DNA of 64,000 nt, taken from positions 12,538 through 76,537 of the forward strand of contig JBAQAF010000049.1 of NCBI GenBank assembly GCA_049285595.1, written 5' to 3'. The position numbers and the translations under genes are program-made. The notes beneath the pieces are model-generated. The model was not told the DNA's origin, ran no database searches, and was given only the letters and a program-made list of their open reading frames with translations. This stretch comes from Thermoplasmata archaeon (lineage in GTDB: Archaea; Thermoplasmatota; Thermoplasmata; Lutacidiplasmatales; UBA184). Numbering within the stretch: the stretch's first letter is position 1; the number at the start of each line of letters is the position of its first letter. Of this stretch, positions 7,275 to 44,625 are shown piece after piece.

Positions 7275-7502
7275 CTACGTGCCGCGCTTTCGCTTGGTGT
7301 AGCGAACCGCGTACCCCGCGATGCGGTTCGCGAGCTTCTTGTGAACGACCGTGTACTTTCCGTCGGCCCCCTGCTTGCCGAGGTCGGTCAGCTCGAGAAC
7401 CTTCTGCTTGTTATGGGCGAAGTCGCCCCCGAACTCGGTCGGGTAGTGGCGGATCAGCTCGATCGCGACCCGCTTGATGTACGTTTGGCGGATGCTGCCC
7501 AT
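7275..7502 (-). CDS. rps17e: 30S ribosomal protein S17e
   Basis: The C-terminal 75 aa of track ORF 7275..7718 read MGSIRQTYIKRVAIELIRHYPTEFGGDFAHNKQKV...KLANRIAGYAVRYTKRKRG. The ATG is at 7502 (cat at 7500-7502). Confidence 0.85.
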   Translation of the reverse strand: MGSIRQTYIKRVAIELIRHYPTEFGGDFAHNKQKVLELTDLGKQGADGKYTVVHKKLANRIAGYAVRYTKRKRGT

Positions 7503-7525
7503 GTGCGCGGGCCGACTCGGGTTCG

Positions 7526-7535
7526 GGTTATAACC
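7526..7535 (-). promoter_or_regulatory. TATA-box-like palindrome GGTTATAACC upstream of rps17e
   Basis: It lies about 28 nt upstream of the S17e ATG on the minus strand and is an isolated AT patch. Confidence 0.45.
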
Positions 7536-7723
7536 GTTGGGAAGAGCACGAATCCCCTCCGGTCGAGGGCCGGGGGGCCCCCGGGACGACCACCCGAATC
7601 GTCGGAAGCCACAAATACCCACTCCAGGGTAAATGGGAGTGTGCAGCACGGTGGGCCCGCCCGTTCCGTGGCCCGGGATTGACCGGAGTAGGACCGGCGA
7701 CGTTGGGCGCACCTCCATCCGCG

Positions 7724-9220
7724 ATGCAGGAAGCGACCGGCGCTCCGCCGGAGCAGAAGCTGCGCGAGCGCAACGTGCTCCTCCTCGACCTGTCGAAGAG
7801 CATGCTGGCGCCGTTGCCGGATCCGGCGGGGAACCGCACCGAGCGCCAGAAGATCGAGGTCGCGCGGACCGCGGTGTTCCGCATCCTCCAGGACGCGGCG
7901 ACGACCGGGACGCCGTTCGGGCTCGTCACGTTCACCGAGACGGTCCGCGTCCCCGTTCCGCTCGGGGAGGTCCACCGCGAGAACCTCCCGTACATCGAGA
8001 ATCTCCTCGCCCTCCTGCAGCCGAGCGGCCGGTCGGCGGTCTGGGACGCGATCGCCGTCGGCGCCGACCTGTTGCGGATGGGATTGCAAGGAGTGCGCGG
8101 CAATCTCGTGCTCGTGACGGACGGCTGGGATAATGCGTCGGCCCGCTTCGGCGTGCGCGGGGAGACCGAGCCGCTGAAGGGAGGGCTCACCGATCTGGTT
8201 CCGTACATCCTGCCGCCCCACTCCGAACTGAGCCTGCGGATCGTCGGGATCGGCAGCGGGGTGGAGCGCGACCGGGGGGTCGACGCCGGGAGCATGAACG
8301 TCTTCCTCGACCAACTGCGCTCCCGGGCCCAGGAGCTCGGGCTCGCGGGCGCCTTCGGCTTCCAGGAAGTGACGACCGGCACCCAACTGTTCGCCCAGAT
8401 GGTGCAAGCCTTCCTCGACGTCGGGTACGACGACGACCGCCCTCTCGAGGAGATGCACCCGGAGGAGCTCGCGCAGCACGCCGCGAGCGCCGCGCGCGCC
8501 CTGAAGGAACCGCAGCAGCACGCCACCGTTTCCCGGCTTCGGGCCCCTCGGGTGAACGTGCCCGCCACGGACGTGAGCTATCTGGAATCGCCCGACCTGG
8601 AGGTCGGGGTCCTCTCCGCCTCGGGCGGTGCCCCCGCCTATCTCAAGGAACGGTACGGCCCGCTCGGCGAGGTGGTGGAAGCGTACATCGGCGGCCAGTA
8701 CGCGCGGGCCCTCGCCATCCTGACGGACGCCAAGGCGGTGTTGCCGCCGGTCACTCGCCTCTACTGGGAGGCGCGGATCCAGTTCGCGCAGCGGGCGGTC
8801 GTCGAGGCGGCCCGCGCGCTCTTGCAGGCGTGGAGCGAGGCCGAGAAGCTCCCCGCCGGCAGCCAGGCATCGGTCCTCCGGCGCCTCGCGCTGCTCCAGG
8901 CGCGGATGCAGAACGACAAGGAGACGGAGACCCTCGTCCGGTTCATCGACGACACCGAGCACCGTCTCGGCGGCGTCGACCCCGCGGCCCGGGAGCGACT
9001 CATGGACCTTCTCGGTCGGCTGATGGAGCTCCGGGGCACGTACCAATTGACGCGGCTCGCCGGCGAGGGGGACCTCCAGGATGCCGCCCTCCGGCACGAG
9101 GCGGCGGTCGAGGACGTCTTCGGGCGTCTCCAGGACGCCCGCCTCGAATTCTCGAGCGCCGGGGCGATCGTCGAGGGGGCGCTCGATTTTATCGAGATAT
9201 GTCTCGCGGAGATGCGGTAG
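7724..9220 (+). CDS. von Willebrand factor A (vWA) domain protein with a ~300-aa alpha-helical C-terminal domain
   Basis: MIDAS-type motifs are present: LLLDLSKSM (DxSxS), SGRSAVWDAI and LVLVTDGWDN. The C-terminal half is helical and TPR-like (YIGGQYARALAILTDAK...YWEARIQFAQRAV). The track ORF begins at TTG 7679; the ATG at 7724 (MQEATG) is preferred. Confidence 0.7.
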   Translation: MQEATGAPPEQKLRERNVLLLDLSKSMLAPLPDPAGNRTERQKIEVARTAVFRILQDAATTGTPFGLVTFTETVRVPVPLGEVHRENLPYIENLLALLQPSGRSAVWDAIAVGADLLRMGLQGVRGNLVLVTDGWDNASARFGVRGETEPLKGGLTDLVPYILPPHSELSLRIVGIGSGVERDRGVDAGSMNVFLDQLRSRAQELGLAGAFGFQEVTTGTQLFAQMVQAFLDVGYDDDRPLEEMHPEELAQHAASAARALKEPQQHATVSRLRAPRVNVPATDVSYLESPDLEVGVLSASGGAPAYLKERYGPLGEVVEAYIGGQYARALAILTDAKAVLPPVTRLYWEARIQFAQRAVVEAARALLQAWSEAEKLPAGSQASVLRRLALLQARMQNDKETETLVRFIDDTEHRLGGVDPAARERLMDLLGRLMELRGTYQLTRLAGEGDLQDAALRHEAAVEDVFGRLQDARLEFSSAGAIVEGALDFIEICLAEMR

Positions 9221-9232
9221 GAGTTTCCCACC

Positions 9233-10402
9233 ATGGGTGAAGTGAAGGTAACCACGCGCTCGAAGCGCAGCACCGGGTCGAAGCGCGAGCCGAAGTCGAC
9301 GTCCCCGGAATCGGCGCGGATCGCCGTGGTCGGGATCCCGGCGTCCGGGAAAACGACGTACTTCCGCTTCCTCTCCGGCCACTTCGGCCTCAACCTTCCG
9401 ATCCTGTACGTGCCCGCCCGCGAGGACGGCGGCAACCTGCCGCTCTACGGCGACCTCGACAACGACGTCGCGCTCGAGGAGACGACGTACGAGACGACCG
9501 ACCCGACGGACCCCGAGGAGAGCCTCGAGACGACGACCCGCTACTACGTCAACCGCCCGATGGAGGACCGCAAGAAGCTCTGGGTGGAGCTCTCCGCCGG
9601 ACGCGAGGACCAGGGGATCCTGACGAAGTACCCGCTGCCGACGAAGTTCAACCAGTTCGTCGAGATGAAGATGCACTTCCGATACGGCGCGCCCGAGGTG
9701 AAGACCGGGTCGCGTCCGATGGAGCTGGAGACTGTCGACGAAGCGGGCGGCATCATCGCCGATTACTTCAGCTACGATCGGCTCTGGATCGACTCGACCG
9801 AGGGCGAGGTGACGGAGAAGAGCTGCCGGGTGATCCCGCACTTCGACTCCTGGCGCCCGGACCGTCGGGACCTCTGGCGCCGCGGGCTGACGCTCCTCGG
9901 GAGGTTCGTGCAGGAGGCCGACGCGATCATTCTGTTCCTCTCCCCGGCGCTCGCCTCCCTGCGCGACCAGGCGCAGCAGATCAACCTCGCCCGAGGCGTC
10001 TTCCGCTACACTCGCACGCGCGACATCCCGCTCGTCATCGCCATCTCGAAGGCGGACAAGCTGAAGGAGTTCTACGGCGAGGTCGAACGCTCCGTCCGGG
10101 AGCGTACGTTCCGCAGCCAGTTCGACCCCGTCGACTTCCTCCTGCGGCGCGACGGCGCCGGCATGGGCACGATCCTCGTCGCTCAGGAAGGGCGCGGGAT
10201 CTCGATCAAGGAGGACGTATTCCTCGTCTCGAGCGCGGTCTCCACCGGTGAGGGGCACCCGTTGATGGTCGGCGAAGGGGGGCAGGAGGCGCCCGCCATG
10301 GGTACGCCGACCCTCGGGGTCCCGGTGATGGTGAACACGACGCTCCCGCTCGCCCGGGCCTGCGAGCGGATCCTGCAGAAGCGCGCGACAAAGGGGTCCT
10401 GA
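9233..10402 (+). CDS. Divergent P-loop GTPase-like protein (TRAFAC-type motifs)
   Basis: G1 is VVGIPASGKTT (aa 31-41), G3 is VDEAGG (aa 167-172), and the G4-like motif is ISKADK (aa 271-276). DAIILFLSP follows G3. The N-terminal 30 aa form a basic K/S/T-rich tail. A GGAG lies in the 12-nt spacer after the vWA stop. Confidence 0.65.
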   Translation: MGEVKVTTRSKRSTGSKREPKSTSPESARIAVVGIPASGKTTYFRFLSGHFGLNLPILYVPAREDGGNLPLYGDLDNDVALEETTYETTDPTDPEESLETTTRYYVNRPMEDRKKLWVELSAGREDQGILTKYPLPTKFNQFVEMKMHFRYGAPEVKTGSRPMELETVDEAGGIIADYFSYDRLWIDSTEGEVTEKSCRVIPHFDSWRPDRRDLWRRGLTLLGRFVQEADAIILFLSPALASLRDQAQQINLARGVFRYTRTRDIPLVIAISKADKLKEFYGEVERSVRERTFRSQFDPVDFLLRRDGAGMGTILVAQEGRGISIKEDVFLVSSAVSTGEGHPLMVGEGGQEAPAMGTPTLGVPVMVNTTLPLARACERILQKRATKGS

Positions 10403-13329
10403 TGGCCGATCCCGACCCTCTGCCGACGAGGGCGGTCGCGCCGGTCGCATCCGTCTGGTGCCGCCAGGTCGACAACGAGGCGGAGAGCCCGGGGTACACG
10501 ACGATCCCGGACGACTTCGCCGGTCTGCGCGAGACGCTCGAATCGATCCGGATCGTCGGGAACCTCACCATCAACATCGCCGACACCCACGACTACTGGG
10601 ACCCGGGACCGTCCCAGTCGCTCTCCTTCTACCCGAACCTGTTCCTGTATCCGGCCGCGGGCCAGCGCTACACGTGCGTCGGCCGGATGTTCCTTTCCAC
10701 CGAGGACCGACCGCGGCTCGGGATGAAGACCCTCGTCTTCTCGACCGCGGAGCTCCTCGCGGGCGGCGACTTCGGCGGCATGGTGCTGCGCGCCCACGCG
10801 ACGATGGACGGGCGCGGGGAGATCCGTCGACTCTCGGCCGACCCCGACACGAGCGTCTACCAGGCGGTCGGCGACGGTTTCCTCTTCGGCAAGGGGACGA
10901 CGGACCCGGTCGTCATCGTCGCGAGCGATCAGTGGGAGGCGGCGGCCCAGACGGTCCTCGAGCTGGTCGGGGCGATGCCCGCGGCGCTCGTCGCGCTCGG
11001 TGCCTTCCTCGTCTTCCCCTACTTCCTGCCGGCGGCGAAGGTGAGCCTCGCCGAGCTCTCCGAACAGCTTCCGACCGCCCTCGCCGTCATGCGGGTCGCC
11101 CGGGGCGAAGCGACCGGGGAGCGGCATGAAAAGCGCCTCAAGAGCTGGGAGGAGCTTTCGGTGACGCTCCGCGACCTCACGAAGCCGGCGTCCGGCAAGA
11201 AGGCCGACGCCCTGCCGCTCGTCCTGCAGTACCTTCACGATCACGAGGAGGATAAGGAACGGGAGGTCGCCCGGCGCGTCGACGCCGTCGAGCTGCCGCG
11301 CCTCGGCACTCACCTCGGCGATGCGGACCGCCAGTCCGGGCGCGAGCGGCGCAAGGAGATGTGGAGGATCGGTGCGGCGATGGAGACGGCGGCGCTCCTC
11401 CTCTCGAAGCCAAAGGGCCGCTCCGTGAGCGTCTCGGGCGAGGCCGGCAAACGCGCGAACGCCTACCTCCAGGCCCGGCCGGCCGACGCCCCGCCCCCCC
11501 CCGTCCCCGCGGAGCTCACCGCCGCCGCGAGCGGATCGGGGTCGACGGGCCCTCTCGACCCCCCCTCCGCGAGCCAGCACCCGGCGTGGCTTCGCGCCCC
11601 GCAGCAAGTGGCGGTATCGGTCCCGGAGTCGATCGGCGTGCCCATGCCGACCGGTGACGATCCTTCGCTGCTCTCCGCGCCGCCCCCTCCGGCGGTCCCG
11701 AGCGTCGCGTCCGACAACGTTCCGATGCTCCGTGCGACGTCGCGGCCTCCCGAGCGTGCGCCGTCGCCCGCCGCCCCCGCCGTCGACCTCGGAGCGATCG
11801 ACGAGCGGGTCCAGAACGCGCTCCGCGACCACGAATCGAAGTGGGCGATCACGATCGAGACCCGTCTCCGCGAAGGGGACGAAGCGCACCGAGCCTCGCT
11901 CGCAGCCGCGCAGCAGGAACTGTCGACCCGTCTCGACTCGCTCGAGGCACGGCCGTCGCTCGACCCCGCCGAGCTGACCCATGCGATCCACGACCGGGTG
12001 GCGACCGCGGTGGACGAACGGTCGGCCGCGCTGGGGGCCTCCGCCTCGCAGGCCGCCGAAAGCGCGTGGTCGACCCGGTTCACGACCGAGCTCAACGGTG
12101 CGATCCAGGAGTTCGACGCCCGCGCGGCGAAATCCGAGGAGGAGCTGCGCGCCGCCCTCGTCGCGCAGCTCGATGTCGAGCTCACCGAGACGAAGGAGCA
12201 GGGAACGGTGCTCCGCGAGGAGATCGAAGGGCGCGTGCGCAAATTGCTCGACGAGCGGGCGACGGAAGTGTCGCAGAAGATGGGCCGCGAGGTCCGCGAC
12301 CTGGAGCAGCGTCTGAACGGGCTCGTCGAGGGCCGATCGAAGGACCTCGAGACCCGCCTCGGCACGAACGTCACGTCCCAGCGCGAGAAGCTCGCCGCCG
12401 TCGCGGACGAGCGGGTCGCCCGCGCGGAGCAACGGATGGCGCTCGAACGGGAGGCCCGGCTCGGGGAGATCACGGAGACGCAGACGGAGGCGCTCGCCGG
12501 CCTGCAGGTCCGCATGCAGTCGTTCGTCGAGGGGAAGCTGCGCGAGACGCTCGAGAAGGATCGGGAACAGTACCTAGCCCTCTTCGCCCGGATGAAGCTC
12601 GACAACGAGCAGGCGCTCGCCCGGACGGTCGACGCGGCGCACCTCGACACGCTGCTCAACGAGCGGCTCACGGAGATGCTGGAGCGAGCGCACGCCGACC
12701 AGTCGAAGGCGGTCGCCGCGGCGGTCACCCACTCGGAGGGCCGTATCCGCGCGGCCCAGCAGGAGCTCCTCACCCGCCTCCACCACCTCGAGACGAGCAT
12801 CCCGACGCAAGCGGTGGACGTCAGTCACATCGAACGGACGGTGCGCCGGGAGCTCGACGACTTCGACCGCCGCCTGAAGGTCGTTCACGATCACATCCTC
12901 CCGATGGTGCGCCAGACGTGGCTCAAGGTCTCCCAGCAGGAGTTCGGCGGCAGCATCCGGGACCTGCGCCAATCGCTCGAGAAGGAGATCCAGCGGGTCG
13001 AGGCGTCGCTCCTCGCGGAGAACGACCAGATGCGCGAACGGATGGAGACCGCCGTCGCCCAGCACGGGCGCATCTGGCTCAACCTGATCCAGCAGATCTC
13101 TCGGGAGGAAGGGTCTCTCGCGGGCCCGGCCCGTGGCCGCGGTCGGGGCATCCACCGGGCCGCCCGGCCGCTCTCCGCCGCGCCGCCGCCGACCTCGGAC
13201 GGGTCGTTCCCTCCCGAAGCGAGCTCCACACATTCGCGCGCGGGTCCCGCTCCCCCCGTCGAGGCTCGACCCGACCCATCCAACCCCGAGTCGGCCGAGC
13301 GGCGACGGCTGCGCCGCGCCGCCCAGTGA
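10402..13329 (+). CDS. 975-aa multidomain protein: N-terminal globular domain, hydrophobic segment, Pro-rich linker, ~440-aa coiled coil and basic Pro-rich tail
   Basis: The ATG shares 1 nt with the GTPase stop (TGATG at 10400-10404). The N-domain occupies aa 1-190 (VWCRQVDNEAESPGYTTIPDDF...FLSTEDRPRLGMKTLVFS). The hydrophobic stretch is AMPAALVALGAFLVFPYFLPAA. The P/A/S-rich linker spans aa ~357-460. Heptad-like E/R/L/A-rich helices span aa ~462-905. No named family recognised. Confidence 0.6.
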   Translation: MADPDPLPTRAVAPVASVWCRQVDNEAESPGYTTIPDDFAGLRETLESIRIVGNLTINIADTHDYWDPGPSQSLSFYPNLFLYPAAGQRYTCVGRMFLSTEDRPRLGMKTLVFSTAELLAGGDFGGMVLRAHATMDGRGEIRRLSADPDTSVYQAVGDGFLFGKGTTDPVVIVASDQWEAAAQTVLELVGAMPAALVALGAFLVFPYFLPAAKVSLAELSEQLPTALAVMRVARGEATGERHEKRLKSWEELSVTLRDLTKPASGKKADALPLVLQYLHDHEEDKEREVARRVDAVELPRLGTHLGDADRQSGRERRKEMWRIGAAMETAALLLSKPKGRSVSVSGEAGKRANAYLQARPADAPPPPVPAELTAAASGSGSTGPLDPPSASQHPAWLRAPQQVAVSVPESIGVPMPTGDDPSLLSAPPPPAVPSVASDNVPMLRATSRPPERAPSPAAPAVDLGAIDERVQNALRDHESKWAITIETRLREGDEAHRASLAAAQQELSTRLDSLEARPSLDPAELTHAIHDRVATAVDERSAALGASASQAAESAWSTRFTTELNGAIQEFDARAAKSEEELRAALVAQLDVELTETKEQGTVLREEIEGRVRKLLDERATEVSQKMGREVRDLEQRLNGLVEGRSKDLETRLGTNVTSQREKLAAVADERVARAEQRMALEREARLGEITETQTEALAGLQVRMQSFVEGKLRETLEKDREQYLALFARMKLDNEQALARTVDAAHLDTLLNERLTEMLERAHADQSKAVAAAVTHSEGRIRAAQQELLTRLHHLETSIPTQAVDVSHIERTVRRELDDFDRRLKVVHDHILPMVRQTWLKVSQQEFGGSIRDLRQSLEKEIQRVEASLLAENDQMRERMETAVAQHGRIWLNLIQQISREEGSLAGPARGRGRGIHRAARPLSAAPPPTSDGSFPPEASSTHSRAGPAPPVEARPDPSNPESAERRRLRRAAQ

Positions 13330-13388: not shown

Positions 13389-13577
13389 GTGAGCGACGAC
13401 CACCGCCACTGCAAGATCTGCGGCCGGACCTGCCCCATCGACGAGGTGACGTGCAGCGCGAAATGCCAGGACTCGCTCGACCGGCGGGCGCGCTCCCGGC
13501 GCAATTACATGTACGTGCTCTACGGGACGGCGGCGCTCCTGTTCGTTCTGCTGCTCTCGAGCCAGTCGCATCTGTAG
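13389..13577 (+). CDS. Small zinc-ribbon protein with C-terminal transmembrane helix (DUF2116-like)
   Basis: HRHCKICGRTCPIDEVTCSAKCQD is followed by a basic stretch and YVLYGTAALLFVLLLS. The start is GTG. Confidence 0.6.
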   Translation: MSDDHRHCKICGRTCPIDEVTCSAKCQDSLDRRARSRRNYMYVLYGTAALLFVLLLSSQSHL

Positions 13578-13586
13578 GGAACATCG

Positions 13587-14396
13587 ATGCCGCGGTACGC
13601 CCACGCCGTGCTGGGCGGGACGTTCGACCGGCTGCACGTCGGACACGAGGCCCTGCTCGCCGCGGCGATGCGCGCGGGACGGCGCGTCTCGGTGGGGGTC
13701 ACCACGGACGACTTCGTCCGGGCGCTGGGGAAGCCGAGCGGCGACACGATCCAACCGTACGCGACGCGCCGCCGGATCGTGCGCCGTTGGCTCTCCCGAC
13801 ACTTCCCGGGACGCGAGGTCCGGACCGTTCCGCTCTCCGACCGCTTCGGCCGATCCGTGGGCCCGGGCGTGAGCGTCCTCATCGTCTCCGCCGAGACCGC
13901 CGGCGGGGGCCGGGCCGTCAACGCGGAACGGCGCCGACGCGCCGAGCGACCCCTGCCGGTCGTCATCGTTCCCCTCGTACTGGCCGACGACCTCTTGCCG
14001 GTCAGCTCCCGGCGGATCCGCGCCGGTACGATCGATCGGAACGGACGGCGGCGCGCGCAGATCACGATCGGTGTCGCTGCCGAGGACGGCGACGATCGGG
14101 CGGTGATCGGCGTCGGGGCTCGCCGTGCGTTCCCGGTCGCTCACCTCCGGTTCGTCGCGTCGCCCGCCCGCCCCCGAGGCTCCCCGGCGGCCCGAGCCCG
14201 GGCCTTCGCCCGCAACGCGATCGGCGATTTCGACCTGGCGATCGGCGTCGCCCGGGAACGGCGGGGCGGCTGGATCGCGGTGGAGCGCTCGGCGTCCGTG
14301 CTCCTCGACCCCGTCCGGATCCCAGGACGTTCCGCGAAGGCGTTGCAACGGGGGATCTCCCACCTCCTCGTGCCCCGCCGGCCGCAAGGACTTTGA
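13587..14396 (+). CDS. coaD: Archaeal-type phosphopantetheine adenylyltransferase (cytidylyltransferase fold) with a ~110-aa C-terminal extension
   Basis: The N-terminus reads AVLGGTFDRLHVGHEALL (GxFxxxHxGH) followed by ...ISSRRIR-like VSSRRIRAG. The protein is 269 aa, whereas stand-alone archaeal PPATs are about 150-160 aa. Confidence 0.75.
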   Translation: MPRYAHAVLGGTFDRLHVGHEALLAAAMRAGRRVSVGVTTDDFVRALGKPSGDTIQPYATRRRIVRRWLSRHFPGREVRTVPLSDRFGRSVGPGVSVLIVSAETAGGGRAVNAERRRRAERPLPVVIVPLVLADDLLPVSSRRIRAGTIDRNGRRRAQITIGVAAEDGDDRAVIGVGARRAFPVAHLRFVASPARPRGSPAARARAFARNAIGDFDLAIGVARERRGGWIAVERSASVLLDPVRIPGRSAKALQRGISHLLVPRRPQGL

Positions 14397-14420: not shown

Positions 14421-14642
14421 ATGGAGACGTATCTTCGCGTCAGTTTCAACAGCGAGGGCGCGAAACCGTCGGAGGTCGCCGACCGGCTGAGGTCGTGCGG
14501 CTTCGTCCCGACGCACGGGAACTACGACTTCGTCTACGACTGGCAAGGGTCGGCGACCCGCGATCAGATCCTCGACCTTTCCGACGAGATCACGCGCCAG
14601 TTGCGCGGCTACTGTGTCCTGATCGAGCTCGAGACGATCTGA
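14421..14642 (+). CDS. Hypothetical small protein (73 aa)
   Basis: It is an ATG ORF with protein-like composition (METYLRVSFNSEGAKPSEVADRLRSCGFVP...) and is co-directional with its neighbours. No family recognised. Confidence 0.45.
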   Translation: METYLRVSFNSEGAKPSEVADRLRSCGFVPTHGNYDFVYDWQGSATRDQILDLSDEITRQLRGYCVLIELETI

Positions 14643-37968: not shown

Positions 37969-38358
37969 ATGACGGGTTGGTTCAAGGCCGCGGACGCGAA
38001 GGAGTTGCCCACGGGGACGATGAAGGGGATCGAGGTCGACGGAGCCAAGGTTCTACTGGTTCACGGCTCCTCAGGAATCCGCGCCTTTGAAGACCGCTGC
38101 GGCCACATGTCGGCCCCGATGAGCATCGGGACTTTCAAAGCTGGTGTGCTCAAGTGTGCGCTTCATTCCGCAGTGTTCGACGCCGAGACCGGGGCAGTCC
38201 GGGGACAGCCCCAGATGCACGTGCCTTCGGCGCAGCTCCCCCCGGAGATGATGGCAGCGATGGCCCAGATGGGTCAGATCATGGGTCAGATCCGCTGCGA
38301 GGCACTTCGGCCATACCCAGTGGCGGTTGAGAACGGCCACGTAATGGTCTACGTTTGA
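37969..38358 (+). CDS. Rieske [2Fe-2S] domain protein
   Basis: CGHMSAP (CxH) and CALHSAVF (CxxH) are about 20 aa apart, and an N-terminal MTGWFKAADAKELPTG pattern is present. The track ORF starts at 37945. Confidence 0.75.
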   Translation: MTGWFKAADAKELPTGTMKGIEVDGAKVLLVHGSSGIRAFEDRCGHMSAPMSIGTFKAGVLKCALHSAVFDAETGAVRGQPQMHVPSAQLPPEMMAAMAQMGQIMGQIRCEALRPYPVAVENGHVMVYV

Positions 38359-38835
38359 TGGTTCCGCGGGTCGGGCTCGAATTCAGTCACCGGCCCGATC
38401 CCTGGCGATCGAGATTTGATGGCGACCGAGCCGGGTGGTCCGGGAATCAGCTGATCGACCCGATGAATAGCCGTGGTATGCCGAAGATCCTCACGATTTG
38501 CCGTGGACCGCACGTGGGTCCGGTCATCCTGCGCTACAACAGACCGGCGGAATTCAGGGCGGCTCATCGCGGCGTCGACAAATTTTTCACAAAGCCTCCA
38601 CCTTTTTTGTGACGGCCGGTGGAAACGTGGGTCGGCTGTCCGAGTCTTCGAGAAGCCGGTCTCGGGATGTCGAAAGTACTCGGAGAGCGGGAATGGCGCG
38701 GGTCTGACTCTCGGGCGAGTTTTCCGGAACGTCTTCCCTCGGAGACCAAATTGAAAAGCGCAGTTAAATCGGCGAAACCAGCGCGGGCGCGGCGAGATTG
38801 CAACCCCCGGGGTCTCAAGATTTATATCTGGTAAG

Positions 38836-38847
38836 ATGTATATACAT
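38836..38847. promoter_or_regulatory. Perfect 12-nt palindrome ATGTATATACAT in an AT-rich patch upstream of arsR-family gene (TATA plus candidate operator)
   Basis: Read directly in the sequence. It is centred about 27 nt upstream of the GTG start at 38868. Confidence 0.5.
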
Positions 38848-38867
38848 TCAACAGATTACGCCCTGTA

Positions 38868-39203
38868 GTGGCCAACGATGTCTTCGCCGTACTGGCAGAT
38901 CCCACCCGACGGCGTCTCCTCAAGGAGCTCGCGTCGGGAGAGCGCACCGTGAACGACCTCGTGCGGCAGGTCGACATCGCACAGCCCGGCGTATCGCGTC
39001 ATCTCCACATCCTCCAGGAGGCCGGTTTCGTCGTCGCTCGCCCGGAGGGCCAGCATCGCTGGTACACGCTGCGGGCCGAGGCGTTCGAGGGACTGGTCGA
39101 TTGGATGCGCAGTGTCGCCCAGGATCAGGCAGGCCGCCTAAGGCGGTTGGCCGACCTCGTAGAGGGACCCAAGAAAATGAGAGCGAAGGGAAAGAAACCA
39201 TGA
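38868..39203 (+). CDS. ArsR/SmtB-family transcriptional regulator
   Basis: VFAVLADPTRRRLLKELASGERTVNDLVRQVDIAQPGVSRHLHILQEAGFV is the canonical ArsR HTH. Confidence 0.85.
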   Translation: MANDVFAVLADPTRRRLLKELASGERTVNDLVRQVDIAQPGVSRHLHILQEAGFVVARPEGQHRWYTLRAEAFEGLVDWMRSVAQDQAGRLRRLADLVEGPKKMRAKGKKP

Positions 39204-39682
39204 CCGAACAGTTCACGAAGCGAATGGATAGCGAAAGAGAGTTTGTCGTTGAACGCACACTCAAGGCAAGCCCCGAAAGGATCTTCGACGCCTACACGGA
39301 CGCGAAGCTCGTACCGCGGTGGTGGGCGCCTCCGGGCGGCTCCCTGCGGGTCGAACAGATGGACGTTCGCCCGGGTGGGAAGTATCGCTACGTGCAGCTG
39401 ACCCCCGGCGGGCAGGAACTGGTCTTCGTTGGTTCGTACATTCAGGTGGAGCCCCCCGTGCGGCTGGTGTACACTTTCGAGGTCGAGGGGCAAGGCAACC
39501 CCGTGACTACAACGGTGGAACTTCATCGTGAGGGTAGGTCGACCCGGGTCACCCTTACGAACCTTTGTGTCTCGAAAGAGGTCCGTGAGATGATGGTGAA
39601 GTACGGGGCGGTTGCGGGGGCGAACTCCGCGCTCCAGCAGCTAGCCAAGCTCCTCGAGCCGCCGGGGGGAACTGAACCATGA
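39200..39682 (+). CDS. AHSA1/Aha1-like SRPBCC domain protein
   Basis: ATG 39200 overlaps the ArsR stop (ATGA). The sequence is FVVERTLKASPERIFDAYTDAKLVPRWWAPPG...GGKYRY...RLVYTFE. Confidence 0.8.
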   Translation: MTEQFTKRMDSEREFVVERTLKASPERIFDAYTDAKLVPRWWAPPGGSLRVEQMDVRPGGKYRYVQLTPGGQELVFVGSYIQVEPPVRLVYTFEVEGQGNPVTTTVELHREGRSTRVTLTNLCVSKEVREMMVKYGAVAGANSALQQLAKLLEPPGGTEP

Positions 39683-40086
39683 AGGGCACGAAGAAGTCCG
39701 GCGCTTCTTCCGCGCCGATCGGGACGAAGACCGACGAACTATCCGATTGGCGAGCCGAAGCGCTCGACCGGTTTCGCCGCCTCATCAAGGAGGCAGACCC
39801 GGGGATCGTCGAGGAGCGCAAATGGAAGAAGCCATCGAATCCGAGCGGAATTCCCGTATGGTACCACGACGGGATAATCTGTACCGGCGAGACGTACAAG
39901 AACCACCTTAGGCTGACCTTCGCCGACGGGGCTGCTCTCCAGGACCCGACCGGCCTCTTCAATGCCAACCTCCAAGGCGTCACGCGAGCGATCGTCCTTC
40001 ATGAAGGCGGCTCGATCGACGGCAACGCCTTCAAGGCGCTGATCCGCGCCGCAGCGGCGCAGAACGCGTCCTCAGCCCGGGACTGA
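39679..40086 (+). CDS. DUF1801 (YdhG-like) domain protein
   Basis: It forms an ATGA overlap with the upstream gene. The pattern is WRAEALDRFRRLIKEADPGIVEERKWKKP...GIPVWYHDGIICTGETYKNHLRLTF. Confidence 0.7.
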   Translation: MKGTKKSGASSAPIGTKTDELSDWRAEALDRFRRLIKEADPGIVEERKWKKPSNPSGIPVWYHDGIICTGETYKNHLRLTFADGAALQDPTGLFNANLQGVTRAIVLHEGGSIDGNAFKALIRAAAAQNASSARD

Positions 40087-40380
40087 CCTTGAAGCCGCTG
40101 CTTGAGGTCGAGGAAGAGGCGAATCGGCCCCTCTGGGAGTCGTGAGGATCGGGGGCGGATGAACCTGACTAAAAAAATTGCGCTGTTGGACTCGTCCGGC
40201 CGATAGAGAAGGGGGGTCGAAGACCGCCCAATCAAACTACGTCGAGGACTGCGGAAAGTTCGCGACTCATTCAGCCAATAGAGTGTTGTTCTCATCCATC
40301 AGGGGCAATCCCCCAAGTCACAAGCGCGACTGAATGGCATGACTGTCGCCGTAACTTATCTCAGAAACTAGCAGCTTTCA

Positions 40381-40905
40381 TCATGGTTCAGACCCTTTGA
40401 AAGGAGGATCGTGGCTGAGCAATCTGTCGTCAGCGAAGTCGAGCCACCGGACTAACCATCCCGGTAAATTTCGAATGGGACATTTCGGATCTCCCAACAC
40501 TGCACAAGCCTGTGCGCGGCTGAGGGTGACGGTGAAGAATCGAGTACTTGTTAACAGGCGTACAATCCCAAGGGCGGCTGCGAATCTAGTTGTTCCCACC
40601 GACGTTAAGTCGTCCCAGTTGAGATCGGATTGCTTTCGATGATCGGTTCGCCAACCCCTCCGTTCGATGGTTACGCCTCGAGTGGTCACCCGAATGTTTC
40701 GGGACACCGAGCCGGGGAAAGGTAGGAGTCCCAAAAACATGCAGACGTAACCAGCAAGAATCGATGTCTCAACGACTACGCGGCCCTGACCGGAAAACGC
40801 CCATTCGAATATTGCAGCAAGTAATGTCCCCGTCAGGAATGCGAGGAGAACGTAGCGCGCCCAAATGCTCGACATGGAGGCCGAGATGGCGACCTCCTCG
40901 CTCAT
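40381..40905 (-). CDS. Hypothetical membrane protein (2 TM plus soluble C-terminal domain)
   Basis: From MSEEVAIS there are two hydrophobic helices (YVLLAFLTGTLLAAIF and ILAGYVCMFLGLLPF), followed by a ~100-aa domain. No family recognised. The start is uncertain; the track ORF extends to 40992. Confidence 0.4.
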   Translation of the reverse strand: MSEEVAISASMSSIWARYVLLAFLTGTLLAAIFEWAFSGQGRVVVETSILAGYVCMFLGLLPFPGSVSRNIRVTTRGVTIERRGWRTDHRKQSDLNWDDLTSVGTTRFAAALGIVRLLTSTRFFTVTLSRAQACAVLGDPKCPIRNLPGWLVRWLDFADDRLLSHDPPFKGSEP

Positions 40906-41266
40906 TCTACACGCCTGAGAAGCGAGAATCCTATCGGCCTTTGATTGTTGTGGGCATGTTCTTCCCTCGGTTGACGAATTCCATGTGAACAATCAATTGC
41001 GCGAATCCACAAGAGCGCGGAGGGACCCGCCCACATACGTTCGCTGTCGGATTCGTTCGGCCGATAGCGGAGGGTAGCCGGAAAAACGAACGATGGACCG
41101 ATAACTCTTCTCCTGAGTTGGCGGGGTGTTACACAAACCCCCTCGTAGACAAAGCTCTGCACGGTCCGGCGAGGACGGGATGGTAGACATGGTGCCCCTT
41201 TCGAACCCTTCTCGGTTGCAAAAGCGGCGGGAGGGTCCTTAATCTAGGAGCGACCGTTTTCGCGCC

Positions 41267-43201
41267 GTGGCCAAGACCCGTCGCCTCGCCGCAATCATGT
41301 TCACCGACATGGTTGGATACACAGCGGGCACCCAGGCCGACGAGTCGGCCACGCTCGCACTTCGAAAGGAGCAGGAAAACCTCATTCGACCTGTGCTGGC
41401 CGCGCACCAGGGCCGGAAGGTCAAATCGACCGGTGACGGCTTTTTGGTCGAATTTGAGAGCGCTCTCAAAGCAACCGAGTGTGCCCTGAGCATTCAGAGG
41501 CGGATCCACGAACGCAATGCGAGAGTCGGAGTCAAACCGATCCAGCTGCGAATCGGTATCCACCTTGGTGACGTCGAACAGGAAGGCACCGACATTTTCG
41601 GTGACGCCGTGAATATCGCGGCTCGAATCGAGCCCGTCGCAGAGCCCGGAGGAATCTGTCTCACGGGCGCGGTCTACGAACAGGTCCGGAACAAGATTCC
41701 GGACAAGCTCGAGAAGCTTCCACCCAAAGAACTCAAAGGCGTCGAAGTTCCGATGGACATTTACCGGGTGGTGTTGCCCTGGACCGCCCCAGAATCGGCC
41801 CCGCCTCGGCCCGGACCCGCGCGACTGGCGGTCCTTCCGCTGAAAAACATCAGCCCGGACCCAATGGATGAGTACTTCGCTGACGGCCTAACGGAGGAGC
41901 TCATTGGTACTCTTTCGAAGATTCGGGAACTCCGGGTCATCGCTCGAACCTCCGTCGGCCAGTACAGGGCGACCTCGAAGACCGTTGCTCAGATCGGGAG
42001 CGAACTCGGCGTCACCACCGTCCTCGAGGGGAGCGTACGGAAGGCGGGCAACCGCCTTCGGATCACGCTGCAACTCATTGACGCACGCACTCAGGAACAC
42101 ATCTGGGCCAACAATTACGATCGCGATCTTGACGACGTGTTCGCGATTCAGACTGAGATTGCGGAGAACACGGCGAGCGCGCTTCGACTCGAGCTCCTCC
42201 GGCCAGAACGAGAGTCGATCGAGAAGGTCCCAACTACCGACCTCGCAGCGTACCATCTCTATTTGAAAGGAATCCATGCGAGTTCGGCGGAGGATTCAGT
42301 CCGATTCTTCGAGGAGGCGATTCGGAACGATCCGCACTTTTCCGAAGCGCATTCGCACTTGGCGAATGTGTTGATCGACCGTACCCTCACCACCTTCGCG
42401 GGTCCTCAGGCAAACCAACGCGTTCGGGAGCTGGTTGCCAAAGCAATCGAGCTCGACCCGAGCTCAGCGGACGCGCACACGGCTCGCGGCAACATGACTT
42501 TCCAGTGGGACCACGACTGGGAAGTCGCCGAGACCGAGCTTCGCCGCGCGATCTCTCTCAATCCGAGCCACGCCAACGCCCACCATTGGTACGGACACCT
42601 TCTGAAGGCGCTGAATCGCTACGACGAAGCGGTAAAGGAGTTCACGATCTACAAGGAGCTGAACCCGGACTGGTTACATCCAGGATGTTGGCTGCTGACA
42701 TGCCAGATTCTCGCAGGTGACCCCGCCCCAGTAATCGCGCGAGTCGAACAAGCTCGTGACAAATCGCCAGCGGACCCTGAACTACGTGTGATGCTGGGCA
42801 TACTGTATCTCCAAGAGGGCCGGATAAACGACGCGCGGAGAGAGGCAGAACGCGCACAGGGGCGAATGGATGGCTGGAGCGAGTGGAATCGTGCGGTTCT
42901 CTGGGCTCAGGTGGGGAGAACCGACGACGCTCGTCGCGTGCTGAGGGAGATGGAGGAAGCATCCCCCAGGTATGTCGCCCCCGAGGGTGTTGCCAGCATC
43001 TACGCTGCGCTTGGAGAGAAGGCGAAGGCGCTCGAGTGGCTGGAACGGGAACACGGGGAGGGGGCTAGTTATCTCGTGTTGGATTACCAATCCCGGATCT
43101 TCGATTCGATTCGAGATGATCCCGGCTTCCGCTCGGTTCTCGAGAGGCTTAAACTGCCAACGGAAGTAAAGTGGACAAGAGGCGCACGGACCAGCCCCTG
43201 A
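41267..43201 (+). CDS. Class III adenylate/guanylate cyclase fused to a TolB-N-like domain and TPR repeats
   Basis: The cyclase core is AAIMFTDMVGYT...STGDGFLVEF...IGIHLGDVE...GDAVNIAARIE. It is followed by LAVLPLKNISPDPMDEYFADGLTEELI...VLEGSVRKAGNRLRITLQLID and C-terminal TPR-like repeats. Confidence 0.85.
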   Translation: MAKTRRLAAIMFTDMVGYTAGTQADESATLALRKEQENLIRPVLAAHQGRKVKSTGDGFLVEFESALKATECALSIQRRIHERNARVGVKPIQLRIGIHLGDVEQEGTDIFGDAVNIAARIEPVAEPGGICLTGAVYEQVRNKIPDKLEKLPPKELKGVEVPMDIYRVVLPWTAPESAPPRPGPARLAVLPLKNISPDPMDEYFADGLTEELIGTLSKIRELRVIARTSVGQYRATSKTVAQIGSELGVTTVLEGSVRKAGNRLRITLQLIDARTQEHIWANNYDRDLDDVFAIQTEIAENTASALRLELLRPERESIEKVPTTDLAAYHLYLKGIHASSAEDSVRFFEEAIRNDPHFSEAHSHLANVLIDRTLTTFAGPQANQRVRELVAKAIELDPSSADAHTARGNMTFQWDHDWEVAETELRRAISLNPSHANAHHWYGHLLKALNRYDEAVKEFTIYKELNPDWLHPGCWLLTCQILAGDPAPVIARVEQARDKSPADPELRVMLGILYLQEGRINDARREAERAQGRMDGWSEWNRAVLWAQVGRTDDARRVLREMEEASPRYVAPEGVASIYAALGEKAKALEWLEREHGEGASYLVLDYQSRIFDSIRDDPGFRSVLERLKLPTEVKWTRGARTSP

Positions 43202-43351
43202 CTGCTCCGAGGGGAATCGCGGACCACGATCCGGACAGTACCGAGTGAGTGTGGCGATAGCCTCAACCGGCCTCCGGGGAAGGGCAAGTCCGGAGCCGGT
43301 TGGATTCCCACAGTTAGGGTCTCCTTTGAAAACCGACCGGTTTCAAGGCGG

Positions 43352-43398
43352 GCTGCGTGGATTGACGGATTCGAACCCTCGAGTGTTAGAATCCGGCC
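43352..43398 (-). pseudogene. Decayed tRNA 3'-half-like fragment directly abutting the tRNA-Arg 3' end
   Basis: The minus strand reads GGCCGGATTCTAACACTCGAGGGTTCGAATCCGTCAATCCACGCA. It has a T-arm-like GAGGG-TTCGAAT-CCGTC with one stem mismatch, an anticodon-arm-like CCGGATTCTAAC and no 5' half. Confidence 0.4.
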
Positions 43399-43473
43399 CG
43401 GGCGCGGAGGGATTTGAACCCTCGACCGCCGGGTTAGGAACCCGGTGCCCTATCCAGGCTAAGCTACGCGCCC
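43399..43473 (-). tRNA. tRNA-Arg (anticodon CCU)
   Basis: The minus strand reads GGGCGCGUAGCUUAGCCUGGAUAGGGCACCGGGUUCCUAACCCGGCGGUCGAGGGUUCAAAUCCCUCCGCGCCCG. I folded the cloverleaf by hand: a 7-bp acceptor, a 4-bp D stem, the anticodon stem CCGGG/CCCGG with loop UUCCUAA, a 5-nt variable loop and the T stem GAGGG/CCCUC. CCA is not encoded. Confidence 0.85.
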
Positions 43474-43496
43474 TCGATGGACTGGTGCGATTTCGC

Positions 43497-43503
43497 AATT
43501 AAT
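43497..43503 (-). promoter_or_regulatory. TATA-like AATTAAT upstream of tRNA-Arg
   Basis: It is an AT patch 24-30 nt upstream of the tRNA 5' end on the minus strand. Confidence 0.45.
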
Positions 43504-43557
43504 CCCTTCCCCCAGTCACATCGGCGGCGAACCTCGAACGCGCGTCACCGGAAATGG

Positions 43558-44625
43558 CTAGTGCTTCGGGGTCGGCGGCGACCCCGCCGGAGGGAGAAGT
43601 CGGTCGTATCGATGATCGACGAGGGCGCGGAACGTCGCGGCCGGTTCCTGAACGATCTCGATCCCCTCCAAGAACTCCTGCAGCGTGGGAAGCACCGGCC
43701 GTCGGGACGCCCGGGGGTCGTCCGGCGGGGGCGTCGAGCCACCCATCGCACCGAGGAGCCATCGGTCCGGCCCCACCACGAACAGGAACGGGAACACCCT
43801 CGATTCCCGGGAGAGCGTCGCGAACAGCAGTTCCGGGCGAGCGCCGTCCCTGGGAGTGCCCGTGAGGAACACGACCTGATCCGCCGACCGACCCTGATAG
43901 GGCGGCAGCCGCGACGGATCGAGGATCGTGCGATGCACGACCCAGCCGCGCTGAAGGAGTCGCCGCTGGGAAAACGGCAACCCGAGCGGACCGACAAGGT
44001 GCGCCCCACGACCCTGCTCCGCGGCGACGAACGGCCTTCGTAGCATTTCCCCAACCGCCCACCACTGATGGGAGGAGAGCGCGATGCTCTCCTCTTCCGT
44101 CTCGACGCCCTCCACGGTTCCCCCGAGCCCGTGAGGATACGCGATCGTCCCCGGGAGCGCGACGACATTGCACCACAGGCCCTCGAAATCGAAGTAGACC
44201 GGCACGTTCGGGCCGTCCGCCCTCACCGTGACGGTCCTCGGTTCGGGACTCAACCGGTTCTTCACCAACGTGTCGACCGTCCGCCGAGCGTCGTTCGCTT
44301 TTGAGTGGAACATCACCGCGAGCGCCATCTGCGCCCCGGTCCACAGTACGACGGTTCCGGGATTCGAGGAAACGATCTCCACCGTCTCGGCGAACCGATC
44401 GGCGAACGGGCGGAGAAGGACGAACGATACCAGCGGACGCCCGAGCGGGACCGGGTGCGGAACGTACCGGTCGCGAAGCCACCCTTCCTGGTAGGCCCGC
44501 TTACGCACCGCGTGGTACGTCGACCGAGGGACGTCAACCACCCGGAGTCGCTCCCGTTCCCGGTCCGGACGGGCAGCGAGCATCACCGCGATCACTCGGG
44601 CCTCCGACTCCGTCAGCGTCCGCAC
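43558..44625 (-). CDS. Hypothetical protein with N-terminal HTH-like segment
   Basis: The 355-aa ORF has protein-like composition (MRTLTESEARVIAVMLAARPDRERERLRVVDVPRSTYHAVRKRAYQEGWL...). No family recognised. Confidence 0.5.
   Translation of the reverse strand: MRTLTESEARVIAVMLAARPDRERERLRVVDVPRSTYHAVRKRAYQEGWLRDRYVPHPVPLGRPLVSFVLLRPFADRFAETVEIVSSNPGTVVLWTGAQMALAVMFHSKANDARRTVDTLVKNRLSPEPRTVTVRADGPNVPVYFDFEGLWCNVVALPGTIAYPHGLGGTVEGVETEEESIALSSHQWWAVGEMLRRPFVAAEQGRGAHLVGPLGLPFSQRRLLQRGWVVHRTILDPSRLPPYQGRSADQVVFLTGTPRDGARPELLFATLSRESRVFPFLFVVGPDRWLLGAMGGSTPPPDDPRASRRPVLPTLQEFLEGIEIVQEPAATFRALVDHRYDRLLPPAGSPPTPKH

Follow-up and report, generated by a model that had tools for sequence, protein, structure and literature searches.

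A conserved operon of Thermoplasmatota encoding a vWA protein, an orphan GTPase and a predicted longin/DENN-like partner: a candidate three-protein GTPase switch

GTPase switches that work with longin, Roadblock or DENN regulators organise eukaryotic membrane traffic. In prokaryotes, this mode of GTPase regulation has, to our knowledge, so far been traced to MglA-MglB and to Asgard archaea. An Asgard operon has been described that encodes a LAMTOR1-like Roadblock protein, a small GTPase of Rab-like type and a DENN-domain protein (Liu et al., 10.1101/2020.10.19.343400). The DENN module itself is tripartite, comprising a longin domain, a three-layer α/β DENN core with a five-stranded sheet, and an all-α d-DENN domain (PMC3521125). 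Longin-type GTPase-activating proteins (GAPs) build their catalytic pocket from β1, β2 and the connecting loop, where the WD and GP motifs are found, and an arginine finger lies nearby (PMC12290439). Here we describe three adjacent genes (genes 1, 2 and 3) of a Thermoplasmata archaeon, which lie in a 64,000-nucleotide stretch of DNA (assembly GCA_049285595.1, contig JBAQAF010000049.1, positions 12,538-76,537 of the forward strand). We call this whole stretch the window and use its coordinates throughout. Gene 1 encodes a von Willebrand factor A (vWA) protein, gene 2 an orphan GTPase, and gene 3 a large protein whose N-terminal head is predicted to have a longin/DENN-like topology. The reading we favour, to which we would give an even chance of being right, is that the trio is a clade-restricted, vertically inherited housekeeping operon of Thermoplasmatota of the Lutacidiplasmatales type, encoding a three-protein GTPase switch, with the gene 3 protein as regulator and scaffold and the gene 1 protein as an adaptor of vWA and tetratricopeptide repeat (TPR)-like parts.

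The order and orientation of the three genes do not differ among the 86 related loci, wherever the contig extends that far, and the same order is found in three more clades with different flanks (L087-L089; homologous loci are designated L001, L004, L007 and so on). In L087 and L089 the neighbours on both sides are wholly unrelated, and the vWA protein has 533 and 508 residues, the GTPase 459 and 482, and the large protein 865 and 904, respectively. Since the order is kept while the flanks change, the trio is a conserved unit. An initial annotation of the window, made from its sequence alone, had taken the three genes for one module, and this distribution bears it out. When one genome per GTDB species was scanned, relatives of gene 2 were found in 159 species, all of them represented by Thermoplasmatota metagenome-assembled genomes (MAGs) from soil, peat and similar samples. 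The carriers include AcS and SubAcS Lutacidiplasmatales MAGs; the habitat and a G+C content of 69% fit Lutacidiplasmatales, and the paper on that order does not mention the module (PMC9287336). Clustered at 90% identity, the gene 2 family forms 354 clusters that are at least 56% identical, all from MAGs assigned to Thermoplasmata, Thermoplasmatota or "Euryarchaeota".

The trio is also under strong purifying selection. Against L007, the closest relative (dS about 0.45-0.6), the ratio of nonsynonymous to synonymous substitution rates (dN/dS) is 0.049 for gene 1, 0.036 for gene 2, 0.050 for the gene 3 head and 0.135 for its linker and rod, compared with 0.106 for eIF6 and 0.171 for the M50 protease; for pairs more distant than L007 such values are affected by saturation. 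In every locus compared, the gene 2 protein is more conserved (75-97% identity) than eIF6 (58-89%), while the identity of the gene 3 rod falls to 28% across loci.

All three genes lie on the + strand and are tightly packed, as the initial annotation had it. Gene 1 (7724..9220), delimited from the open reading frame (ORF), the homologue alignment and Pfam, encodes a cytoplasmic vWA protein of 498 residues with a weakly TPR-like helical C-terminal half. Gene 2 (9233..10402), delimited from the ORF, its homologues and an AlphaFold2 (AF2) model, encodes an orphan TRAFAC-type GTPase of 389 residues. Gene 3 (10402..13329) encodes 975 residues arranged as a predicted longin/DENN-like head, a Pro/Ala/Ser linker, an amphipathic helical rod and a basic Pro-rich tail. 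The mechanical ORF of gene 1 opens at a TTG (7679; 513 residues), which had been taken as the start. The N-terminal Met of the aligned homologues coincides with the ATG at 7724, so that the latter is most likely the true start. The TAG stop codon of gene 1 (9218-9220) is followed by a 12-nucleotide spacer (9221-9232) before gene 2, and this spacer is 7-19 nucleotides long throughout the main clade. The sequence GGAG (9220-9223), previously placed within the spacer, has the final base of that stop codon as its first letter. Genes 2 and 3 overlap by a single base, the stop of one and the start of the other lying within TGATG (10400-10404). Translational coupling through the spacer and this overlap favours the reading of the trio as an operon. 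The G+C content of the trio region (0.69-0.71) is host-like, matching that of the window (about 0.69), and archaeal ribosomal-protein and eIF6 genes are carried upstream of the trio in the window, in agreement with the chromosomal character first ascribed to the module.

Gene 2 keeps the motifs of a GTPase. The G1 motif or P-loop, GIPASGKT (residues 34-41; 9332..9355, +), is invariant except at position 37 (A/S). The G3/Walker B motif, DEAGG (residues 169-173; 9737..9751, +), is invariant at all its positions (D169, E170, A171, G172 and G173) in 35 homologues. In G4, the motif for guanine specificity, SKAD (residues 272-275; 10046..10057, +), which follows a modelled strand at 267-272, Ser replaces the usual Asn/Thr, and S272, K273 and D275 are invariant. 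G5 is represented by S334-A335. These four motifs occur in canonical order, are invariant or nearly so among the 35 homologues (54-97% identical to gene 2 of the window), and lie in the AF2 model on the strands and loops where they would be expected. The protein had been described as a P-loop NTPase with G1, G3 and an atypical G4, GTPase-like rather than of the MoxR AAA+ kind, and the retention of G1, G3, G4 and G5 supports both statements. The Walker-B Asp is followed by an invariant Glu (E170), and where Ras has its catalytic Gln (Q61) there is a Gly. The N-terminal tail (residues 1-27) is basic (net +4) and variable, and its length differs among homologues, which range from 364 to 482 residues.

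Outside these motifs gene 2 is an orphan. The P-loop is the sole stretch that matches Pfam or PDB GTPase profiles, and the matches in Pfam, NCBIfam and PDB are all below the cutoffs. No relatives outside the family turned up when 1.84 billion representative proteins were scanned exhaustively with phmmer; the 14 matches are all fragments or same-family proteins (sister clades of about 60% identity). A few homologues have been labelled "SRP receptor beta" or "SAR1 family" by the Joint Genome Institute (JGI). The AF2 model is of medium quality, with a predicted local distance difference test score (pLDDT) of 64 and a predicted TM-score (pTM) of 0.71. Its core runs β1-P-loop-α1...β2-β3-DEAGG...β4-α3-β5-SKAD-α4...β6-SA...α5. 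A three-strand β insert separates α1 from a conserved segment, LTKYPLPTKxNQF, that probably corresponds to switch I. Other inserts come after switch II and after G5. In Foldseek searches, the model matched MglA (probability 0.90-0.91), PH1320/NOG1 (0.91-0.94) and Rab27a (about 0.9), with TM-scores of 0.2-0.46. The best E-values were those of kinesin Eg5 motors (E 2e-3, probability about 0.5, TM-score 0.2). Kinesins and myosins have a β1-β3 lobe before the P-loop and an NxxSSR switch I, and they lack NKxD and SAK motifs. In gene 2 only one strand precedes the P-loop, and SKAD and SA are present after β5 and β6. A kinesin/myosin-type motor was therefore rejected; the Eg5 matches probably reflect the β-rich insert, and on the modelled order of elements we read gene 2 as a TRAFAC GTPase with inserts.

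The head of gene 3 is the proposed regulator. Its N-terminal 340 residues have 30 detectable homologues, including a distant clade (about 40% identity) with proteins of 555-561 residues, and AF2 models the head with confidence (pLDDT 84, pTM 0.88). The head had been thought to be a globular unit of about 190 residues, and the model corrects this to about 335 residues in three parts with a longin-DENN-like topology. Domain 1 (residues 16-161; 10447..10884, +) shows a longin-type β-β-α-β-β-β-α-α topology in the predicted structure, with strands at residues 16-21 and 31-35, a helix at 42-58, strands at 80-85, 90-99 and 105-114, and helices at 124-134 and 150-161. Domains 2 and 3 (residues 170-335; 10909..11406, +) consist in the model of four β-α units at 170-258, which are DENN-core-like, followed by three long helices at 273-335, which are dDENN-like. 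The predicted order of elements over the whole head matches the published description of the DENN module (PMC3521125). The best Foldseek match in PDB was 7mge_C, from the C9orf72:SMCR8:WDR41-ARF1 complex (E 1.7e-3, probability 0.66, TM-score 0.23), and it was the only top longin-type match to span the whole head. The next matches were weak: TagF (4e-2), the Lst4 longin, a Lokiarchaeota Roadblock-Longin protein and 6ces_N of GATOR1. Nothing was found in the literature on TagF as a DENN-like protein, and the TagF match stands as a weak Foldseek result only. Both models, that of gene 2 and that of the gene 3 head, gave weak structural matches. We regard a longin-DENN-like fold of the head as likely but not established.

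Conservation in the head is strongest in two blocks of the predicted longin-like domain. The block WCRQVDNEAESP (residues 19-30; 10456..10491, +), spanning the end of β1 and the loop that leads to β2, shows no variation among the clades, at an overall identity of 37-44%; in the model it takes the same structural position as the GP/WD catalytic-pocket motifs of longin GAPs. A second block, GRMFLSTEDRPRLGMKTL (residues 94-111; 10681..10734, +), is near-invariant and forms the β4-β5 hairpin. It has the consensus GR(M/L)FLSTEDRPRLG(M/I)KTL, in which R95, R103 and R105 are invariant; these three are candidate arginine fingers. From the order of strands in a longin sheet, the β4-β5 hairpin would adjoin the β1-β2 loop. 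Invariant R21, R95, R103 and R105 all lie in or beside the loop and the hairpin of the modelled head, and together these features give the region the appearance of a GTPase-contacting surface. The head also contains the hydrophobic stretch first noted (residues 188-206; KD19 hydropathy 2.12). This stretch is modelled inside domain 2 at pLDDT above 90 as a buried, proline-rich strand/helix, with invariant prolines at P193, P206 and P210. A transmembrane anchor was therefore rejected, the segment being a core element of the second head domain.

Beyond the head, gene 3 is more variable. The Pro/Ala/Ser linker (residues 341-465; 11422..11796, +) has 23 prolines in residues 351-450. Within its otherwise variable sequence, the motif P-[AP]-W-L is kept by every clade and the motif DDPSLL by the main clade; the latter resembles the acidic dileucine pattern D-x-x-L-L. 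Judged from sequence, both are candidate docking peptides, for example for the MIDAS (metal ion-dependent adhesion site) of gene 1. The linker is followed by a rod (residues 466-895; 11797..13086, +), which has hardly any Pro or Gly and many charged residues, and whose conserved C-terminal part includes the motifs LPMVRQTWLKV and GRIWLNLIQQISR. The rod had been called a coiled coil of about 440 residues. An amphipathic helical region of that extent is present; heptad periodicity is not supported, as the hydrophobic period is 3.75 rather than 3.5 (power 2.99; the highest value in 200 shuffles was 2.09), although the C-terminal third is nearer 3.5-3.7. BLAST revealed no internal sequence repeats. 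The C-terminal motifs of the rod (...TW.KV... and GRIWL.L.QQ.SR) are common to the short homologues of the 555-residue class, and the total length of gene 3 varies from 558 to 1206 residues (median 1019 in 64 complete homologues). On these grounds the rod behaves as a variable-length spacer between conserved ends. The remaining residues (896-975, with the stop; 13087..13329, +) make up a basic, Pro/Gly-rich and disordered-looking tail, as judged from its composition and net positive charge. No transmembrane segment was found in any of the three proteins.

In gene 1, the vWA core matched by Pfam spans residues 18-138 (7775..8137, +), and both profile matches are above cutoff (VWA_2, E 8e-8, 33.3 bits, cutoff 27; VWA, 26.5 bits, cutoff 23.8). 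VWA_2 is matched by all 17 homologues. The MIDAS is complete (DxSxS...T/S...D, with Ser in place of the usual Thr), and its residues D22, S24, S26, S104 and D133, numbered from the ATG at 7724, are invariant in the 17 homologues down to 41% identity, so that the intact MIDAS first proposed is well founded. The nearest PDB profile matches, the vWA domains of BatA/BatB, are weak (E 3e-3). The C-terminal helical region (about residues 300-498; 8621..9217, +) ends in the conserved LDFIEICLAEMR, and its last 200 residues or so contain the conserved blocks RYGPLG, YWEARI and RRLALLQA. It had been described as a helical, TPR-like tail. The conserved blocks do look helical; TPR_16/TPR_19 match in only two of the 17 homologues (E about 1e-3 to 1e-4), and the TPR-like character is plausible but weakly supported. 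Gene 1 has no hydrophobic segment (maximum KD19 1.36).

How the three proteins might work together can be sketched as follows. The gene 2 protein would cycle between GTP and GDP states as a guanine-specific TRAFAC switch without a Ras-type catalytic Gln. The gene 3 head would dock on its switch regions through the surface made by the WCRQVDNEAESP loop and the STEDRPR hairpin, and would set the rate of hydrolysis or nucleotide exchange, in the way that Arf, Rab, Rag and MglA are controlled by longin/Roadblock platforms. The head would thus contact gene 2 directly, acting as a GAP or a guanine nucleotide exchange factor (GEF). A flexible Pro-rich linker would join it to a rod of about 150-650 residues, which would oligomerise or lie along a surface. 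The MIDAS of gene 1 would clamp an acidic motif of a partner, possibly DDPSLL of the gene 3 linker, in which case genes 1 and 3 would also be in direct contact. The rods and basic tails would place the complex on a surface such as a membrane, and a role at the membrane, in cell shape or in division would then be expected rather than one in defence.

Several points weigh against this picture. No DENN, uDENN, Folliculin, C9orf72, Avl9 or TagF Pfam profile matched gene 3 at E <= 10 in 17 homologues, and PDB sequence searches with gene 3 gave no matches. The Foldseek matches of gene 2 and of the gene 3 head are weak, with TM-scores of about 0.2 and none at E <= 1e-3. The gene 2 model is only of medium confidence, the P-loop and switch I regions having pLDDT below 50. 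The GP motif of longin GAPs, which closes the loop before β2, is not found in gene 3, where the position reads E28-S29-P30-[G/K/R/W], that is, a conserved Pro in a differing motif. No carrier of the trio has been cultured, and that the three proteins bind one another is something we infer.

Other explanations have to account for the same evidence. The weakness of the DENN match leaves room for a membrane-remodelling or cytoskeleton-like machine, in which the gene 3 rod would be a lipid-binding or filament-forming polymer whose assembly the GTPase controls, and the head would not be of the DENN type. The rod period of 3.75 is typical of straight amphipathic helices rather than of heptad coiled coils, rod length varies, genes 2 and 3 have basic tails, and the membrane-anchored DUF2116 protein and the M50 protease are frequent neighbours. 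However, it is the head loops and the GTPase that are best conserved and not the rod (dN/dS 0.135, identity down to 28%), and the trio proteins have no transmembrane segment. We consider such a machine rather unlikely, and it overlaps with the GTPase-switch operon rather than excluding it. The position of the trio might point to a different role, that of a GTPase for ribosome biogenesis or translation tied to the rps19e-rpl31e-eIF6-rps17e cluster, with the vWA protein and the rod as assembly cofactors. In most loci rps17e and eIF6 are directly upstream, NOG1 and PH1320 are among the Foldseek matches of gene 2 (probability 0.91-0.94), and 60S assembly in eukaryotes involves MIDAS domains (as cited in PMC7159879). 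But the trio is transcribed divergently from rps17e and survives the loss of the rps17e/eIF6 adjacency in seven loci (L001, L004, L044, L060, L067, L087 and L089), the NOG1 matches have TM-scores of 0.2-0.3 and reflect a generic GTPase core, Pfam and NCBIfam detect no RNA- or ribosome-binding domain, and a variable rod of 150-650 residues is unexpected in an assembly factor. A ribosomal role therefore seems very improbable.

The initial annotation had likened the logic of the trio to vWA-MoxR ternary systems and GTPase-centred conflict systems, and a divergent DO-GTPase-GAP1-type system, with the vWA protein as sensor and gene 3 as a GAP1-like partner, deserves consideration. DO-GTPases are TRAFAC members with a conserved Walker-B Glu, encoded before a three-domain GAP1 protein and sometimes with vWA and coiled-coil proteins (PMC7159879). 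The invariant D169-E170 of gene 2 recalls this Glu, the gene 3 head has three subdomains, and faint DO-GTPase2 matches were seen in 11 of the 35 gene 2 homologues (best E 0.012). These matches, however, cover only the P-loop (profile positions 3-16) at 13.6 bits against a cutoff of 27, and no GAP1-N, GAP1-M or GAP1-C match was found by Pfam in gene 3 or its homologues. Both classes of conflict system are mobile, patchy, effector-bearing and fast-evolving (PMC7159879). The trio is the opposite: a strict operon of fixed synteny and vertical-looking distribution, with host-like G+C content and dN/dS (0.04-0.05) below that of a translation factor, eIF6. Scans of Pfam, NCBIfam and PADLOC show no effector domain, in line with the initial annotation; there is no PADLOC match and no Zn-ribbon or transmembrane component. 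A conflict or defence system is for these reasons improbable, and the suggested kinship is not supported. The claim that the trio matches no characterised system is, since Pfam, NCBIfam, PADLOC and PDB sequence matches reach only the vWA or P-loop level. Finally, DNA of high G+C content gives long spurious ORFs, such as one of 998 residues in antisense at 7454-10450, so that the genes might be artefacts, or unrelated neighbours by chance. This is as good as refuted by the hundreds of homologues, the low dN/dS, the order kept across changing flanks and the start/stop overlap.

The 998-residue antisense ORF (7454-10450, -) spans genes 1 and 2, and similar long antisense ORFs occur across the region. 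They are the usual artefact of stop-codon-poor DNA of about 70% G+C and a trap for gene callers. Three database homologues of gene 3 (P0121, P0124 and P0125) have garbled C-termini consistent with this artefact. Frameshifts or in-frame stops are seen in gene 1 or gene 3 of L016, L023, L058, L070, L072 and L076, most of which come from large single-contig 'MFD...bin' MAGs, and these apparent disruptions probably reflect faulty assembly or sequencing, not pseudogenes.

The flanks of the trio are common to many loci but not fixed. An upstream rps17e/eIF6 pair and a downstream series of DUF2116, PPAT-like, p73 and M50 genes are common, and are displaced or absent in several loci; in the clades of L001 and L004 other genes lie upstream. 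In the window, rps17e (7275..7502, -) is transcribed divergently from the trio and is outside the module; it was recognised from its translation, and its equivalent in L088 gives a weak Pfam Ribosomal_S17e match. The module had been placed between rps17e and coaD. The first neighbour is correct, whereas on the other side a DUF2116 gene (13389..13577, +; Pfam E 1.6e-14) intervenes, encoding a treble-clef protein whose C-terminal helix is hydrophobic. Most loci have this gene next after gene 3, and it is not at that position in L034, L035, L037, L043, L046, L053, L058, L087 and L089; its product is a possible accessory or membrane partner of the trio. The "coaD" gene, which together with the DUF2116 gene takes up 13389-14396 (+), encodes a cytidylyltransferase-like (PPAT-like) protein of 269 residues with a C-terminal extension of about 120 residues, and the slot it holds is taken in L088 by a gene for an NTPase_I-T protein. 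Next comes the gene for a 73-residue protein (p73; 14421-14642, +), which has no Pfam match, is 55-93% identical in all clades (dN/dS 0.06 against L007), and travels with the DUF2116 and PPAT-like genes downstream of the trio in most loci.

Directly upstream of the vWA gene, and overlapping its start, L001 (5018-5257) and L004 (4850-5089) encode a Cys protein of 79 residues (LLCPFCG...FPCMFSP); neither the window nor the loci of the main clade have a counterpart. This protein may represent a fourth component specific to these clades, and a 77-residue protein in L087 (3851-4084) is possibly its equivalent. Far from the trio, G+C content drops to 0.58-0.62, against about 0.69, at 38000-44000 of the window. 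The ORFs of this stretch (38798-39682, + and 41267-43201, +) encode an AHSA1/SRPBCC-domain protein and a fusion of a class III adenylate/guanylate cyclase with TPR repeats, and the stretch adjoins the only tRNA gene of the window, tRNA-Arg(CCT) (43399-43473, -). The stretch may be an island, acquired horizontally at a tRNA gene.

If the favoured GTPase-switch operon is real, it would add an independent and deeply conserved example, from Thermoplasmatota, of a GTPase switch regulated by a longin/Roadblock/DENN platform, and a new combination of partners for such a switch, a vWA-MIDAS protein and a variable-length rod. It would also add three orphan families whose evolution is slower than that of a translation factor, which implies an important cell-biological function in archaea abundant in soil and peat. 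The model singles out particular residues: E170 of gene 2; R21, R95, R103, R105 and the WCRQVDNEAESP loop of gene 3; and D22, S24 and S26 of gene 1. A bolder proposal, which we think improbable, is that non-Asgard archaea keep an ancient and probably essential GTPase machine, built of the parts of eukaryotic membrane traffic and acting on the membrane or envelope. Its components would be a small-GTPase-type switch, a longin-DENN regulator and, as adaptor, the vWA and helical parts of gene 1, reminiscent of the trunk and helical domains of Sec23/24. If it were true, longin-DENN/GTPase regulation would predate, or be independent of, the lineage of Asgard archaea and eukaryotes. In a still bolder variant, the β-rich insert of gene 2 would mark it as kin to the long-sought prokaryotic protein from which the kinesin/myosin motor fold arose.

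The likeness of the trio to known systems is partial in each case. Like DO-GTPase-GAP1 systems, it has a TRAFAC GTPase with a Walker-B Glu followed by the gene of a multi-domain partner, and some versions of those systems include vWA or coiled-coil proteins (PMC7159879). Unlike them, it has no above-threshold profile matches to their components, no effectors, mobility or Zn-ribbons, and it shows strong purifying selection and fixed synteny. The vWA domain of gene 1 is closest in sequence to BatA/BatB structures (E 3e-3), and BatB also joins a vWA domain to TPR-like helices. However, gene 1 differs from BatA/BatB and vWA-MoxR proteins in having no transmembrane segment and in having a GTPase as partner NTPase. 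In the loci examined (the window neighbourhood, L001, L004 and L087-L089) no MoxR AAA+ or DUF58 gene was found; L001 has a CDC48 gene upstream, which is a housekeeping gene in its own right. In MglA-MglB, as here, a prokaryotic GTPase is encoded beside a longin/Roadblock-type platform, and gene 2 matches MglA in Foldseek (probability 0.90-0.91). But MglB is a stand-alone Roadblock dimer of about 160 residues, whereas the predicted platform of the trio is part of a protein of 560-1200 residues. Moreover, gene 2 has a DxxG motif (DEAGG) and about 200 extra residues, and MglAB operons have no vWA partner.

The eukaryotic longin-DENN GAP complexes (C9orf72-SMCR8-WDR41, FLCN-FNIP and the longin GAP GATOR1) share with the gene 3 head the predicted order of longin, α/β core and helical parts, 7mge_C being the top PDB match. 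They also have their GAP pocket at the β1-β2 loop, the site where gene 3 conservation peaks, alongside invariant arginines. They differ in that the structural similarity is low (TM-score about 0.2), SP replaces the GP motif in gene 3, no heterodimer of two longin-DENN subunits is indicated for the trio, and the client GTPase of the trio is not an Arf, Rab or Rag. In the Asgard operon the parallel lies in arrangement rather than in shown homology: both are conserved archaeal operons that combine a small-GTPase-type switch, a predicted regulator of longin/DENN type and a third, adaptor protein. The trio departs from it in its host (Thermoplasmatota), in its third partner, which is vWA-TPR-like and not Roadblock, in its GTPase, an orphan with large inserts and not Rab-like, and in its DENN-like head, in which sequence searches detect no DENN signature and to which a long rod is fused. 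The trio is best classified as an uncharacterised module of three orphan families, a variant of the theme of a GTPase with a longin/DENN (Roadblock-type) regulator. By our comparison it most resembles, among described arrangements, the Asgard Roadblock-GTPase-DENN operon, with MglA-MglB as a more distant resemblance.

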